A stretch of 24,000 nucleotides of DNA from an uncultured Coriobacteriaceae bacterium (GTDB taxonomy: Bacteria > Actinomycetota > Coriobacteriia > Coriobacteriales > Coriobacteriaceae), in contig OZ007012.1 of NCBI GenBank assembly GCA_963931435.1, forward strand, positions 623,710 to 647,709, read 5' to 3'. Of the stretch, positions 5,037-20,921 are shown piece after piece (the first letter of the stretch is position 1; the number at the start of each line of letters is the position of its first letter). A program made the position numbers and the translations under genes. The notes under the pieces are model-generated. The model saw only the letters and a list, made by a program, of their open reading frames with translations. It had not been told where the DNA came from and did not search any database.

Positions 5037-5405
5037 ATGATTCAAATGCAAACCATGCTGAACGTCGCCGACAACTCCGGTGCGCGCAAGGTTCGCTGCA
5101 TCAAGGTGCTTGGTGGTTCCAAGCGCCGCTATGCGGGGATCGGCGACGTGATCGTGGCGGCCGTCCAGGAGGCCACTCCGGGCGCCAACGTCAAGAAGAA
5201 GGATGTCGTGAAGTGCGTCGTCGTGCGCACCGTCAAGGAGATCCGCCGCAAGGACGGCTCCTACATCCGCTTCGACGACAACGCCGCGGTCGTCATCAAC
5301 AACGACGGCTCGCCCGTGGGCACCCGCATCTTCGGGCCCGTGGCGCGCGAGCTGCGTGACAAGAAGTACATGAAGATCGTCTCGCTTGCTCCCGAGACCC
5401 TGTAG
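5037..5405 (+). CDS. rplN: 50S ribosomal protein L14
   Basis: ATG at 5037 after a GGAGGA RBS gives the canonical [16 protein letters not shown]... N-terminus, 122 aa. The track start at 5019 is probably too far upstream. Confidence 0.96.
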
Positions 5406-5424
5406 AAGAAAGGAGAGAGCAGCT

Positions 5425-5748
5425 ATGGCCATGTCCATCAAGAAGGGCGACACCGTCAAGATTCTCTCCGGCAAGGATCGCGGCAAGCAGGGCACCGTGC
5501 TCCGCGCCTACCCTGCTGAGGGCAAGATCAAGGTTGAGGGCGTTGCCGTGGTCACCAAGGCCGTGCGTCCCAACCAGCAGAACCAGGCCGGCGGCTTCGA
5601 GCACAAGGAGGCCAAGATCGACGCCTCCAACGCCATGCTCGTGTGCCCCAAGTGCGGCGCCGCCACCCGCGTGGGCCACAAGTCCGGCGAGCTCGACGGT
5701 CACAAGACCAAGATCCGCGTCTGCAAGAAGTGCGGTGCCGAGTTCTAA
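5425..5748 (+). CDS. rplX: 50S ribosomal protein L24 with a C-terminal CxxC...CxxC motif
   Basis: ATG at 5425 after an AGGAGAG RBS, 107 aa. KOW motif (KKGDTVKILSGKDRGKQGTV). The C-terminal part carries CPKC (C74/C77) and CKKC (C100/C103). Confidence 0.95.
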   Translation: MAMSIKKGDTVKILSGKDRGKQGTVLRAYPAEGKIKVEGVAVVTKAVRPNQQNQAGGFEHKEAKIDASNAMLVCPKCGAATRVGHKSGELDGHKTKIRVCKKCGAEF

Positions 5749-5793
5749 ATCCGCTATCGAGCTGATTCGATAGTTTCGCCTGAGGGCGCCTGA

Positions 5794-5823
5794 GCCCCGT
5801 CGCGCAAGCGGCGGGGCTTTTTT
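5794..5823 (+). terminator. Rho-independent terminator after rplX
   Basis: 10-bp GC stem GCCCCGTCGC/GCGGCGGGGC (one G-U pair), GCAA loop, then a T6 run at 5818-5823. A smaller hairpin CTATCGA/TCGATAG lies upstream at 5754-5773. Confidence 0.85.
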
Positions 5824-5880
5824 CCGCCGATTGAAGGGGGCGCGTTTCGAGGAGACGCATATCCTCTATGAAACTAAGTT

Positions 5881-6080
5881 GAGCCCGACCTGCCCAACTA
5901 AGTCCAACTGGGCCCAACCGGGCCCAACAGGTCCCAGGTGAGCCCAGCCGGCCAAACCGGGCCCAATCGAACCCAACGAGCCCGGCCGAGCCTAACCAAG
6001 CTCTACCAAGCTCTACCAAGCTCTACCAAGCTCTACCAAGCTCTACCAAGCTCTACCAAGCTCTACCAAGCTCTACCAAG
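5881..6080. repeat. 10-bp-periodic tandem array: about 12 degenerate units (NNCCCAANNN-like) then 8 perfect CTCTACCAAG units
   Basis: Read directly. 6001-6080 is exactly 8 x CTCTACCAAG, 5991-6000 is the variant CCTAACCAAG, and 5881-5990 repeats a CCCAA/CCCAG core every 10 bp. Confidence 0.9.
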
Positions 6081-6144
6081 CCAGATCTCCGCACTGCTCA
6101 CCTTCGTCGACCTCAGAACGAGCATGAATGTACAAAAAGCCGAG

Positions 6145-6180
6145 TAGGGAACAGTTTAGGGAACAGTCTAGGGAACAGTT
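6145..6180. repeat. 3 x 12-bp direct repeats (TAGGGAACAGTT / TAGGGAACAGTC / TAGGGAACAGTT), iteron-like
   Basis: Read directly. An 11-bp inverted copy of CGAGTAGGGAA (6141-6151) occurs at 6265-6275 (TTCCCTACTCG). The surrounding sequence is visibly AT-richer than the rest of the window. Confidence 0.85.
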
Positions 6181-7046
6181 CACAAAATGCCTGGTAGATG
6201 AGGTGCTGAATCTCGAAGGTAATGCCTCATCGGCGTATTTCAAGGGTTTTGGCGCACTAAACTATTCCCTACTCGACTTTCTGTACATAAGCGCAACGCC
6301 GTCGTGTGCAGGTATCGCTGTAGAGCAGTGCTGCCCCGGGCTTCTGAGCCGGGGCCACCGGCACACGGTCGGGCATCTCCCTTGCGGTTAAAACGTCGAA
6401 TGCCGCATAAAGGCGACCCCAGCACGTGTGCGGGCACCGCCATAGGTCTACCGCTTGTCCTTCGGTGGACGCTTTGGTTTCTGTCCACGCGCACCATCCC
6501 TGTGCACGCTCTGCACGCCGGCGCTGGGGCGGTAGCTTTGATGCAGCAGAAGGGTGCATGTCAGAACCATCGCTTAATAGATGGCTTTGTCAACACATCG
6601 TAGATCCTGCGCAGGGGTTGTCGCGATCTGGCCCGGCGTAGGTTGCTCCACCTTAACCCTGCCGCCCTGCAGTCAGCATCTCATTGTGCCTGCTGCCTGT
6701 CCGCTTGCCGCCCACCTGAACGCCGCCCTGCATGTCGGCCATGTTGCGCGCCCGACGTCTTCCTGCACGTCGCGAGCCCTGCTAAAAAGCGGCTGCGATC
6801 CGGCCTAACGCAGATGGTTCCGTTTGCGCCCCACCATCCCGTACACCATCTTTTCGCGTGTCCGCAGCCGCGCCTGCGTGCACGCTGCTGCACCTGCAAT
6901 GCAAGCCGGCGCACGGCCCGAGACCGTAACGCGCGCCCCCGAGCCGTCTTTTCACCGGAACGGTGCAATCTCAAGTGAAGACTTTGTGTGCGCGGTCGAG
7001 TATCCTCATGTAGGAGGAACCCGTCTGCAGAAAGGGGGATGGTTGC

Positions 7047-8954
7047 ATGAACGATCGCGCGCGCAAGCTCGTGATGCTGCTCGAGCAGAGCGGCACCTGG
7101 ACCACGGCCGCTTCGCTGGCCTCGTCGCTGGGATGCTCGGCGCGCACCGTCAAGACAACCGTCGCCCAGCTGAACGAGTCCCATCCCGGCATCGTCGTCT
7201 CGAGCTCCCATGGCTACCGCCTGGGCGATGCCGACGCGGTCGAAGACCTGCTCTCCTCGGCGACCACGCGCGTCGAGGGCGTGCCGCAGACGGCCCAGGA
7301 GCGCCGCACGCGCATCCTGTGCCAGCTGCTCATGCGCCACAACGAGCTCTCCGTCGAGGATCTTGCCCAGGAGCTGTGCATCTCGCTCACCACGCTGGAG
7401 AACGAGATTCAGGCCATCAACGCCGACCTCTCGGCGAGCGACGTGGCCCTGCGCACGCGCGGGGGCCAGCTGTTCGTGGCCGGTGACGAGGCCGCCAAGA
7501 AGCGCGTCATCAGCGACCTGCTCTTCGGCGAGACCCGGGACTTCTTCAACCAGCTCGAGCTGGTGAACGTCTACTTTCCCGATATCGACATCAAGGAGCT
7601 GCGCGCCGCGATCGACGAGCGGCTGAAGCGCGAGGGCTTCTTCATCAACGGCTACTCGCTCTCCAACCTGATTCTGCATATCGCGATCGCGCTGGAGCGC
7701 TGCCTCAACGGCTTTCCGGCGGCGGACAGCGGGTTTCCCGTCCAGGGCTCGATCTCCACGGAGGTCGACCGCGTCACCGAGGACATCCTGGGCGGCATCG
7801 AGGAGAAGTACCAGGTGTCCTTCTCGGCGGCGGATCGTCGCTCGCTCAAGCTCATCCTCTCCACCTGCCTAGTGGATGTCGACAGTCTGGAGGACGCGCG
7901 CCCGCAGAACAGCCAGGTCGCGCGCCTGCTCGACCATATCCGCGCCCGCGTGAGCAGCGAGTACGCGGTCGATCTCTCGGACGGGGAGTTTGGCGTGCGC
8001 TTCTCGCTCCACCTCGAGAACCTGCTCGCCCGCGGCGAGAGCGACGTGGTGCTGCGCAATCCGCAGTTCGACCTCATCAAGAACGCCTACCCCTATGTCT
8101 ACGAGATCGCGGTCTTCATCGCCGAAATCATCCAGAGCGATACCGGGCTCATGGTGAGCGAGGACGAGATCGCCTTCATCGCCCTCCACGTGGGCTGCTT
8201 CATCGAGGAGCAGGCGTCGCGCGGCAACAAGCTGCGGGCGTTCGTGGTGAGCCCGCGCTACAACGCGCGCAGCACCTCGCTCGCCGAGCTTTTGAGCGAC
8301 TACTTCGCGCAGGACCTCTGCATCGACGCGGTGGTGGAGGAGCCCGACGAGATCCGCAACGCCAGCCAGGTCGACATCATCATCTCGACGCAGGAGCTGC
8401 GCGGGCGGTTCGCCGCGCCCGTGGTCAAGGTCTCGCCGTTTCTGGGCGAGGTCGACCGCGCGCTCATCCGCACGCGCATCGACGCGATCCGCGCCGCCGC
8501 GCGTCGCCGCGCGATGGAGCGCAATCTCTACGCGTTCTTCCGCAGCGACCTGTTCTTCATCGACACGCCGTTCAAGGACGAGCACGACGTGATCGAGGCG
8601 ATGGGTGGCACCCTCGTGGAGCGCGAGTTCGCGTTCCCCGACTTCAAGGAGCGCCTCTACGCGCGCGAGGCGATCAGCTCGAGCGTGTACCGCGACATCG
8701 CTCTACCGCACCCCATCGACATGGATGGGATCAAGACGGCGGTGGCGGTCTCGCTCCACCCCGATCCCATCTCGTGGATGGGCTCGCCGGTGCATGCGGT
8801 GTTCATGCTGTGCGTCACGCGCGAGGACCGCTCGTTCTTCCGCGAGGTGTTCGAGTTCGTCGCCCACGTGCTCAACGAGCCCACGAGCGTGCAGACGGTG
8901 AGCCGCGCGCGCACGTTCGAGGAGTTCGTCGAGATGCTGCTGAGGTACTACTAG
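7047..8954 (+). CDS. PRD-domain transcriptional activator of the MtlR/LicR/ManR class (HTH - Mga-like HTH - PRD1 - PRD2 - EIIB(Gat)-like - EIIA(Mtl/Fru)-like)
   Basis: 635-aa ORF with a GGGGGA RBS before the ATG. N-terminal winged HTH. PRD-like segments with His (LILHIAIALER; FSLHLENLL; IAFIALHVG). EIIB-like segment KLRAFVVSPRYNARSTS. EIIA-like C-terminus with DIALPHP and AVFMLCV. Confidence 0.85.
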   Translation: MNDRARKLVMLLEQSGTWTTAASLASSLGCSARTVKTTVAQLNESHPGIVVSSSHGYRLGDADAVEDLLSSATTRVEGVPQTAQERRTRILCQLLMRHNELSVEDLAQELCISLTTLENEIQAINADLSASDVALRTRGGQLFVAGDEAAKKRVISDLLFGETRDFFNQLELVNVYFPDIDIKELRAAIDERLKREGFFINGYSLSNLILHIAIALERCLNGFPAADSGFPVQGSISTEVDRVTEDILGGIEEKYQVSFSAADRRSLKLILSTCLVDVDSLEDARPQNSQVARLLDHIRARVSSEYAVDLSDGEFGVRFSLHLENLLARGESDVVLRNPQFDLIKNAYPYVYEIAVFIAEIIQSDTGLMVSEDEIAFIALHVGCFIEEQASRGNKLRAFVVSPRYNARSTSLAELLSDYFAQDLCIDAVVEEPDEIRNASQVDIIISTQELRGRFAAPVVKVSPFLGEVDRALIRTRIDAIRAAARRRAMERNLYAFFRSDLFFIDTPFKDEHDVIEAMGGTLVEREFAFPDFKERLYAREAISSSVYRDIALPHPIDMDGIKTAVAVSLHPDPISWMGSPVHAVFMLCVTREDRSFFREVFEFVAHVLNEPTSVQTVSRARTFEEFVEMLLRYY

Positions 8955-19579: not shown

Positions 19580-20921
19580 TTATAGGACAAAATGTGTGTC
19601 CGCTTCTGGGGCATCGACGCAGGTCGATGCCCCTTTTCCATGCGTTTAAATCTGCGGGGCGAATTTAACCACTCGGACAGAAAGTGTGTCCGGATTCGCA
19701 CCTTCCCCGCAGGTAGATGACTGAAAATCAGGCCGTTAAAATCCCGATTTCCGAGGAGCTGGGGATGAAGGCGGTCAGGTGCCCCTCATGCGGGGCTGCG
19801 ATGAAGAGGAACGGGAGGACGAGCGCGGGGTCCCAGCGATGGAGGTGCAAGGCGTGCGGGGCCTCGAACACGGTCTCCTACGACGACGCGGCGGCGAGGC
19901 TCGGGGAGTTCCTGGCGTGGCTCACCTCCAAGGACACGCAGCTCTCGATGCCCGGCCAGGGCAGGACGTTCAGGAGGAGGACCGCCGGGTTCTGGCGCGT
20001 CTGGCCCATGCCCGAGCCGACCGGGGAGGTGCACCGGGTGCTCTTCGTCGACGGGATATGGCTCGCCCGCGACCTCGTCGTGCTGATCGCCTACGACGGC
20101 GAGCACGTCGTCTCGTGGTACATGGCCCAGGCCGAGACCTCGAGGGCCTGGGAGGCCCTGATGGCGCCGATCCCGGCCCCGGACGTGGTGGTGTGCGACG
20201 GCGGGACGGGCTTCGAGGGGGCGAGGCGCCGCTCCTGGCCCCGCACGCGCGTGCAGAGGTGCCTCTTCCACGCGTTCTGCCAGGTCAAGCGCTGCACCAC
20301 GACGAGGCCGAGGCTCCAGGCGGGCAGGGAGCTCTACGCGCTCGCGCTCGAGCTCATGCACCTGGACACCCTCCGCCAGGCCGACTGGTGGGTCGAGCGC
20401 TACCTGCAGTGGTGCGAGTTCTGGGCGGACTTCCTCGAGGAGAGGTCCATGCAGGACGGCCGGCTCGTCTACACCCACGAGAGGCTCAGGAGGGCCCGCT
20501 CGTCGCTCTCGCGGCTCGTCTCGCGGGGGACCCTCTTCACCTACCTCGACCCGGCACTGACCGCGGAGGGGCCGCTGCCGCGCACCAACAACCCGATCGA
20601 GGGAGGGGTCAACGCGCAGCTCAGGGACGTCCTGCGCAACCACCGAGGCCTGTCGTCAATGCGCAGGGTCAAGGCGGTCTTCTGGTGGTGCTACCTGCAC
20701 ACGGAGTCGCCGAGGCCCGCGCGCGAGGTCATTGCGGCCATGCCGACCGACGACGACGTTGACCTGCTCTACAGGACCTACTCGGCGGGGCCCAAGCGCG
20801 ACGACGGGGGCCCGGAGTGGGGCGACCGGGTCGTCTGGGAGGAGCTCCACCACAAGGACCCGTACCCCTTCTGGCTGGACTAGGACAGATGTTCTGTCGA
20901 GACACACATTTTGTCCTATAA
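19580..20921 (+). mobile_element. IS1249-like (IS256 superfamily) insertion sequence with 21-bp perfect terminal inverted repeats
   Basis: TTATAGGACAAAATGTGTGTC (19580-19600) is the exact reverse complement of 20901-20921. An 11-bp direct repeat GAAAAGGGGGC flanks the element (19569-19579 and 20925-20935). One transposase gene fills the interior. Confidence 0.85.
19765..20883 (+). CDS. IS1249/IS256-like transposase with an N-terminal zinc-finger
   Basis: N-terminal CPSCG...CKACG zinc ribbon and a DDE-type core (VLFVDGIW, VVVCDGGTGF, NNPIEGGVNAQLR). The ATG at 19765 follows a GAGGAG RBS. The track's alternative start at 19717 has a poor RBS. Confidence 0.85.
   Translation: MKAVRCPSCGAAMKRNGRTSAGSQRWRCKACGASNTVSYDDAAARLGEFLAWLTSKDTQLSMPGQGRTFRRRTAGFWRVWPMPEPTGEVHRVLFVDGIWLARDLVVLIAYDGEHVVSWYMAQAETSRAWEALMAPIPAPDVVVCDGGTGFEGARRRSWPRTRVQRCLFHAFCQVKRCTTTRPRLQAGRELYALALELMHLDTLRQADWWVERYLQWCEFWADFLEERSMQDGRLVYTHERLRRARSSLSRLVSRGTLFTYLDPALTAEGPLPRTNNPIEGGVNAQLRDVLRNHRGLSSMRRVKAVFWWCYLHTESPRPAREVIAAMPTDDDVDLLYRTYSAGPKRDDGGPEWGDRVVWEELHHKDPYPFWLD

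Follow-up and report, generated by a model that had tools for sequence, protein, structure and literature searches.

A putative slippage-born 10-bp tandem array beside a MITE-like element downstream of rplX in an uncultured Coriobacteriaceae bacterium

The stretch of DNA analyzed here (the window) comprises 24,000 nucleotides, genome positions 623710–647709, of the single-contig 2.40-Mb chromosome (67% GC) of an uncultured Coriobacteriaceae bacterium. Its upstream part carries the S10/spc cluster of ribosomal protein genes, recognized by Pfam matches to L3, L4, L2, L22, S3, L16, L29, L14 and L24, with rplX as the final ribosomal gene ahead of a break in the operon. The C-terminal tail of the encoded L24 has a four-cysteine, zinc-ribbon-like CxxC...CxxC arrangement (CPKCG...CKKCG, window positions 5644–5745). 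On the far side of the break lies a gene for a transcriptional regulator, the first of an accessory PTS-peptidase cluster that continues with genes for PTS IIB and IIC components, an M24 peptidase and an aminotransferase (Pfam). The features of this region, in window coordinates, are as follows.

5425–5748, plus strand: rplX, ribosomal protein L24 (Pfam ribosomal_L24 and KOW; ATG at 5425 spaced from an AGGAG)
5794–5823, plus strand: intrinsic terminator of rplX, built of a G+C-rich stem of 10 bp, a GCAA loop and a T6 tract (sequence reading)
5881–5994, no strand assigned: decayed part of the array, about 12 units of the GGGCCCAACC type, two of them 9 bp long (TRF and register/autocorrelation)
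5995–6081, no strand assigned: perfect part of the array, 8.7 copies of a 10-mer, with eight CTCTACCAAG units at 6001–6080 (TRF)
6082–6127, no strand assigned: unique linker of 46 bp that separates array and MITE (sequence)
6128–6288, plus strand: MITE-like element of 161 bp, ATGTACA...TGTACAT, one of ten copies in the genome (self-BLAST and alignment)
6145–6180, plus strand: three tandem 12-mers TAGGGAACAGTT, the left subterminal repeats of the MITE (TRF period 12, 3.0 copies; 12-mer map)
6289–6949, no strand assigned: species-specific non-coding spacer with no recognized gene or RNA
6950–7046, plus strand: conserved region 5' of the regulator gene (window positions 6950–7400 are 83% identical to the sister species G008)
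7047–8954, plus strand: PRD/Mga-HTH/EIIA PTS transcriptional regulator (Pfam PRD, PTS_EIIA_2, HTH_11 and Mga)

The rplX–rplE junction of the spc operon is otherwise near-universal. Here, rplE is found at genome position 657649, about 28 kb downstream of rplX; the operon is thus divided by an accessory insertion, and the array marks the left edge of this insertion. The break 3' of rplX is common to the congeners G008 and G009. The gap of about 28 kb also contains a transposase-like ORF (19717–20883), with weak matches to Mutator-family and InsA transposases below the Pfam cut-offs. Between rplX and the regulator gene (5749–7046), no Rfam family was found at gathering score (best sub-threshold E = 0.12), nor any tRNA or tmRNA, and an RNA gene or riboswitch was rejected on these grounds. 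No promoter-like site was found in this gap, and none of the small proteins encoded in 5750–7046 had a Pfam match. The spacer 6289–6949 had no DNA match in 40 relatives, plasmids or phages and no Rfam or Pfam match. The conserved region 6950–7046 probably holds the promoter of the regulator gene.

The array consists of a perfect run on the right and a decayed run on the left. The perfect run detected by TRF (5995–6081; period 10, 8.7 copies, 100% matches, score 174) includes the eight identical CTCTACCAAG units noticed in a preliminary description of this DNA, and its autocorrelation is 1.00 at lag 10. These 87 perfectly periodic bases cannot be due to chance, and the array is one of just two long perfect arrays genome-wide. 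The dozen or so degenerate units described 5' of the perfect ones were recovered as well in the layout of the sequence, and TRF reported 7.6 copies of a period-10 unit at 5892–5966 (68% matches, 3% indels). In this degenerate part, the autocorrelation is 0.59 at lag 10 versus 0.48 at lag 9, and two units, near 5949–5958 and near 5979–5988, are 9 bp long, so that the register of the array is off by 2 bp over 200 bp. The "exact" 10-bp periodicity previously ascribed to the entire 200 bp is therefore a property of the 87-bp perfect run and breaks down elsewhere. Set in tens, the older units read as (G/T)GGCCCAAC(C/T)-like sequences, of which the perfect unit is a diverged form (for example, AAGCTCTACC versus GAGCCCAACC). 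The rightward gradient from degenerate to perfect units is real by sequence, TRF and autocorrelation alike, and the recent slippage expansion at the right end that had been proposed to explain it is consistent with all observations, although we infer the mechanism. With its head-to-tail tandem copies of a short unit at high identity, the array has the structure of a minisatellite.

The array is non-coding. In agreement with the preliminary description, no credible ORF covers it: the sole candidate is a 69-aa GTG ORF (5938–6147) that has no Pfam match, lacks an RBS and is atypical in codon composition. Within the array, the GC3 of this ORF is about 50%, in a genome of 67% GC, because all three frames cycle through the 50%-GC unit. 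On reading the sequence, all three frames of the plus strand are open through the array, and the minus strand contains TAG in every frame.

A perfect array with a unit that is not a multiple of 3 is a classic substrate for phase variation, and the three open plus-strand frames would add to the case for a contingency locus, in which copy number tunes a neighboring promoter or small ORF. The only other long perfect array of this genome, CCGCAGCC repeated 11.4 times, sits just 5' of a –10-like hexamer, which also lends this reading some weight. Repeats of contingency loci, however, lie inside an ORF or in or just 5' of a promoter, and the studied array occupies neither position. There is no promoter-like site in or beside it, the one ORF over it has the shortcomings given above, and the nearest gene start is about 970 bp away, past the MITE and a 660-bp spacer, with the conserved, putative promoter region beginning only at 6950. 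We consider phase variation at this site highly improbable, and the same distances argue against the earlier suggestion that the array sets the spacing of a promoter or operator. The CCGCAGCC array itself (genome positions 1298030–1298120) lies between divergent genes and ends 13 nt 5' of the TATACT hexamer and about 50 bp 5' of the ATG of a 478-aa ORF; phase variation of a promoter is a good possibility there.

The position and composition of the array also bring Rho-dependent termination to mind. Rut sites are C-rich, G-poor, unstructured RNA. The plus strand of the perfect array contains 32 C and 8 G per 80 nt (a C:G ratio of 4:1), placing it in the top 1.4e-5 of windows, and its predicted single-strand fold is weak (–6.4 kcal/mol, z = –1.4, with DNA energy parameters whose transfer to RNA is assumed). 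Thus, if transcribed, the array would offer the at least about 80 nt of C-rich, G-poor and weakly structured RNA of a rut site. Since it lies directly 3' of the rplX terminator and 5' of a strong hairpin in a genome that encodes Rho, it could load Rho on read-through transcripts of rplX, with the MITE hairpin as a pause site, and act as a back-up terminator that insulates the accessory PTS island from the strongly expressed ribosomal genes. Nevertheless, the C-richness follows automatically from the composition of the unit, the intrinsic terminator already looks strong (10-bp GC stem and T6), the sister species G008 has the same gene junction with no array at all, and C-richness on a transcribed strand is not a consistent property of the other arrays next to MITEs. 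A rut-like role appears quite unlikely.

We compared the locus with those of relatives and searched for the array elsewhere. The gap was matched in just 2 of 40 relatives, both congeners. The rplX 3' end and terminator (5300–5824) are 85–86% identical in G008 and G009, and 31 bases over the terminator stem (5794–5824) are 97% identical in the congeners. In G008, an array-free spacer of 268 bp leads from the same terminator to the conserved region that starts 97 bp ahead of the same regulator gene, a distance of 1125 bp in the studied genome; in G009, a different gene follows the terminator. No significant similarity was detected between the spacers of G008 and the studied genome. A 9-mer, TCCAACTGG, common to the array and the G008 spacer is at chance level (P = 0.23), and seeding of the array from an ancestral spacer was rejected. 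No relics of the congeners' MITE families were found in the spacer.

The follow-up proposed in the preliminary description, a search for the same array in the genome and on plasmids, yielded nothing beyond the studied locus when extended to phages and viral contigs. A two-unit pattern of the array had no second locus in the genome, and neither the 185,579 species-representative genomes nor the viral contigs contained it. It was found in 14 metagenome stretches, whose unrelated flanks and GC contents of 33–65% identify them as independent microsatellites, and a pattern spanning the array junction had no match in metagenomes. Import from a mobile element was rejected as no similarity to the array was found in plasmid and phage collections. 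Cyclic 10-mers of the unit occur 2–25 times each elsewhere in the genome, mostly in coding DNA; the unit is not enriched outside the array, and a dispersed operator motif was rejected for this reason. Absence from relatives and databases indicates that the array is young and species-specific. It is lineage-specific and missing at the orthologous site of close relatives, as expected of a minisatellite.

Direct repeats spaced by about one helical turn could in principle bind a protein of the ParR, TubR or RHH type cooperatively, in the manner of a centromere or of iterons, or form an intrinsically bent segment. Both had been raised for this array, and we find them barely plausible. The array does resemble the plasmid centromeres parC and tubC, with their ParR or TubR iterons, in having direct repeats of about 10–12 bp in phase. 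In contrast to these systems, it is chromosomal and single-copy, lacks an adjacent par or tub operon as well as a plasmid or phage setting, has no carriers among relatives, and is losing its register. Consistent with the initial remark that no par genes are nearby, no par or tub gene is present among the window ORFs scanned against Pfam, which encode ribosomal, PTS, peptidase, aminotransferase, RDD and transposase-like proteins, with several lacking a match. Neither the adjacent partition operon nor the plasmid or phage replicon of a parC or tubC site is seen here, and the absence of the array from the sister species and of plasmid, phage or viral matches points the same way. For the bend, a wedge model ranks the array among the top ~2% of 87-mers of the genome, but the predicted curvature is slight: the end-to-end/contour ratio is 0.96 versus 0.55 for a phased A-tract. 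The unit has neither a dyad nor an A-tract, and, apart from the 2-bp loss of register, its 10.0-bp period would drift by about 17 degrees per unit against a 10.5-bp helix.

About 46–47 bp to the right of the array begins an element of the form ATGTACAGAAACCCGGGTAGGGAACAGT...ACTGTTCCCTACCCGGGTTTCTGTACAT, present in the genome in ten copies of 161–163 bp with terminal inverted repeats (TIRs) of about 30–45 bp. The copies are 65–81% identical in pairwise comparisons, except for one pair at 94%. Their ends are strongly conserved, and the center is nearly free to vary apart from the island GCCTGGTAGATG. One end bears the 12-mer TAGGGAACAGTT two or three times in tandem, the other a single inverted copy; the 12-mer repeats beside the array are the left end of a dispersed MITE. 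The copy studied here (6128–6288) folds into a hairpin with z = –3.7. The element is short and non-coding, has TIRs, and occurs in multiple dispersed copies with unrelated flanks, as is typical of MITEs. As its ends are palindromic (ATGTACA...TGTACAT), a target-site duplication (TSD) is not distinguishable from the TIRs. A search of the genome for an autonomous full-length partner, or for a transposase flanked by such ends, found none. One relic, at genome positions 1432224–1432295, juxtaposes a right and a left end of the MITE, both facing outward (CCTGTTCCCTA x2 ... GTAGGGAACAGT), and may represent either a deleted copy or a two-element junction.

The MITE was not found in 11 congeners and had no match in species-representative genomes or viral contigs, and a search of 300 other genomes of the family for the 12-mer dimer returned nothing beyond control level. 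The congeners have their own dispersed inverted-repeat elements, with other 12-mers, among them CGGGTTCATTAC and GCGGCAATGTAC, and a common central CTGGTAGA motif; a 13-copy family in G006 has the form TAGGGGGTCA...CAATGTAAGGATGGAAT. The rpoC–rpsL spacer contains one such inverted-repeat element in every species examined. Judged from these sequences, the elements look like a genus-wide superfamily with species-specific ends.

REP and REPIN elements are mobilized by RAYT (Y1 HUH) transposases. The MITE shares with them conserved inverted ends, a variable center, a recurrent GTAG, intergenic location and hairpin formation. It differs from them in having only about ten copies and 12-mer direct repeats at its ends, and no Y1_Tnp gene was found in the genome. 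Identity as a REPIN was rejected on the basis that PF01797 (Y1_Tnp) had no match in this 99.8%-complete genome, with six control genomes matched in the same search. An integron attC-like reading was rejected by eye: the element lacks a GTTRRRY core, and its copies are dispersed singly.

The proximity of the array and the MITE proved not to be confined to the studied locus. An external non-coding tandem array lies within 250 bp of 6 of the 10 MITE copies, against 0.35 copies expected (~17-fold), an association that was noticed after the fact and is based on one genome. The expectation was derived by placing copies at random in non-coding segments and scoring TRF arrays with a score of at least 60; none of 5000 simulations reached six array-bearing copies. 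The association was stable for TRF score cut-offs of 50–100 and distances of 100–400 bp. In each case, the array lies at the 12-mer-bearing end of the MITE (six left, none right), and MITE left ends account for two of the genome's five strongest non-coding arrays. One of these arrays, at 2036243, has a 19-bp unit in 5.3 copies, lies 10 bp from its MITE, and shows a decayed-to-perfect gradient running towards the MITE, like that of the studied array. At the MITE copy at 769110, a 20-bp duplication spans the junction between flank and MITE, and must therefore have arisen after insertion. In congeners, the rpoC–rpsL spacer contains neither the MITE nor the accompanying array present in the studied genome. 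An array (20 bp x 4) also lies about 75 bp from a second MITE-like family, at 859590–859850. The wider locus of this family (859590–860002) has three GGTAGTGAACCC sites per arm in inverted orientation and a central CACTGGTAGAGAG, followed by a terminator-like hairpin and the 20-bp x 4 array. Among related elements in congeners, 3 of 25 have arrays (one of the 13 from G006, two of the 12 from G009), a weak replication.

Further comparisons bear on how such an association could come about. Generic inverted repeats other than the MITE (arms of at least 20 bp) have arrays at the null rate (5 of 127), with only a weak trend for those with longer arms (3 of 36 and 2 of 13); generic hairpins are not enriched, and a model of simple hairpin-stalling slippage is not supported. 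The left flanks of the MITE copies are not homologous to one another. Shared ancestry of the array flanks was rejected, as the ACCAAGC-containing flanks of two sister MITE copies align no better than shuffles. The polarity of replication forks was also rejected as a determinant of the array side, the two directions being represented 3:3 (origin at about 2.36 Mb, terminus at about 1.03 Mb), and the array side has no polarity relative to the flanking genes. Elsewhere in the genome, two arrays with a 37-bp period and near-identical units (CTCCCGGCTCAGGCCAGCCGCTCCGCC...), at 1412308–1412408 and 1840037–1840136, appear to represent another dispersed repeat family.

The one-sidedness of the arrays is also a feature expected if the array served as a set of auxiliary sites for a MITE-recognizing protein, a transposase or host factor, such that array and MITE formed one composite module. 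In favor of this possibility, the reverse-complemented unit GCTTGGTAGA and the central motif of the MITE GCCTGGTAGA, the only conserved island in the center, are identical at 9 of 10 positions, a match with P values of 0.008–0.07 depending on the control (0.024 against shuffled units on the island) in what are post hoc statistics. The motif CTGGTAGA likewise occupies the center of the congeners' related elements and of the second MITE-like family in the studied genome. Moreover, GCTTG(G/C), a motif picked after looking, is present in the units of 4 of 8 MITE-adjacent arrays versus 1 of 71 others. Other properties do not fit a set of binding sites. The unit varies by locus in sequence and in length (10, 15, 19, 20, 21 and 24 bp), the other arrays show no match to the center of their own MITE at that motif, and GCTTG does not keep to one strand with respect to the MITE (616391 versus 629704). 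Together with the non-homologous left flanks and the failure to find an autonomous element or transposase with MITE ends in the genome, these observations make the shared-module interpretation unlikely.

A broader possibility is that the 12-mer end of the MITE is a polar hot spot that seeds and expands arrays in the DNA beside it, or recruits them as extra binding sites related to the central GC(C/T)TGGTAGA. This is conceivable, although we regard it as rather doubtful. If it is true, the MITE and the array would form a composite 'transposon plus satellite' module, of which the 10-bp array would be the youngest and clearest product. To our knowledge, such a module has not been described in bacteria.

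Bacterial intergenic VNTRs and minisatellites include the loci used for MLVA typing and MIRU-type loci, and slipped-strand mispairing is their accepted mechanism. Like them, the studied array is head-to-tail and non-coding, has perfect young copies beside decayed old ones, and is missing in the sister species; taken alone, it is an ordinary bacterial minisatellite. A VNTR is defined by copy-number variation between strains, and, with one genome per species, the array is a putative VNTR. Unlike typical VNTRs, it adjoins a particular MITE end, as do other arrays in the genome.

The closest described bacterial case is BrickBuilt of Porphyromonas gingivalis, a species-restricted intergenic MITE with a minisatellite and multiple copies per genome, in which a single 23-nt unit, identical in all copies, is repeated between inverted-repeat ends (Klein et al. 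2015, PMC4596501). The MITE described here is likewise species-restricted, intergenic, multicopy and minisatellite-associated, whereas its arrays lie outside the TIRs, on one side only, have units of 10–24 bp that differ between loci, and accompany 6 of 10 copies. Thus, the studied array is not, as in BrickBuilt, located between inverted-repeat ends and built from the same unit throughout. In plants, too, small DNA transposons and short tandem repeats reportedly co-locate non-randomly. The microsatellite-associated and microsatellite-targeting transposons described there are eukaryotic and involve mostly 2-bp repeats, which are reported to be either pre-existing and targeted or carried inside the element (PMC8449440, PMC4486113, PMC5907723). 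In the studied genome, in contrast, at least one duplication occurred after insertion (the copy at 769110), and neither the MITE nor the array is present in relatives.

Considering these observations together, we find it reasonably likely that the array, a species-specific, non-coding 10-bp minisatellite, arose by slippage in unconstrained DNA as a by-product of a duplication-prone MITE neighborhood. Under this scenario, an older GGGCCCAACC-like array would have decayed through point changes and two 1-bp deletions, after which slipped-strand mispairing or unequal exchange would recently have multiplied a variant unit at its right end, CTCTACCAAG, to 8.7 identical copies. The growing array would have met no opposition in the unconstrained DNA that separates a strong terminator from a distant promoter, and it would have no sequence-specific job. 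Its position is probably not accidental: because it lies near the 12-mer end of an array-accompanied MITE family, we read it as a mutational by-product of that neighborhood, in which the MITE end may play a causal part. The likeness between the unit and the MITE center and the GCTTG units of MITE-adjacent arrays are hints against pure neutrality.

In practical terms, the array could serve as a marker for strain typing or within-host evolution of this species, and the locus marks the edge of an accessory insertion of about 28 kb at the rplX–rplE junction. More interesting is that tandem arrays occur together with one MITE family and on one side of its copies only. Satellite DNA made or attracted by the ends of mobile elements is known mainly from eukaryotes. 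If the association holds in other strains and species, it would provide a tractable bacterial case of mobile-element ends creating or attracting satellite DNA.
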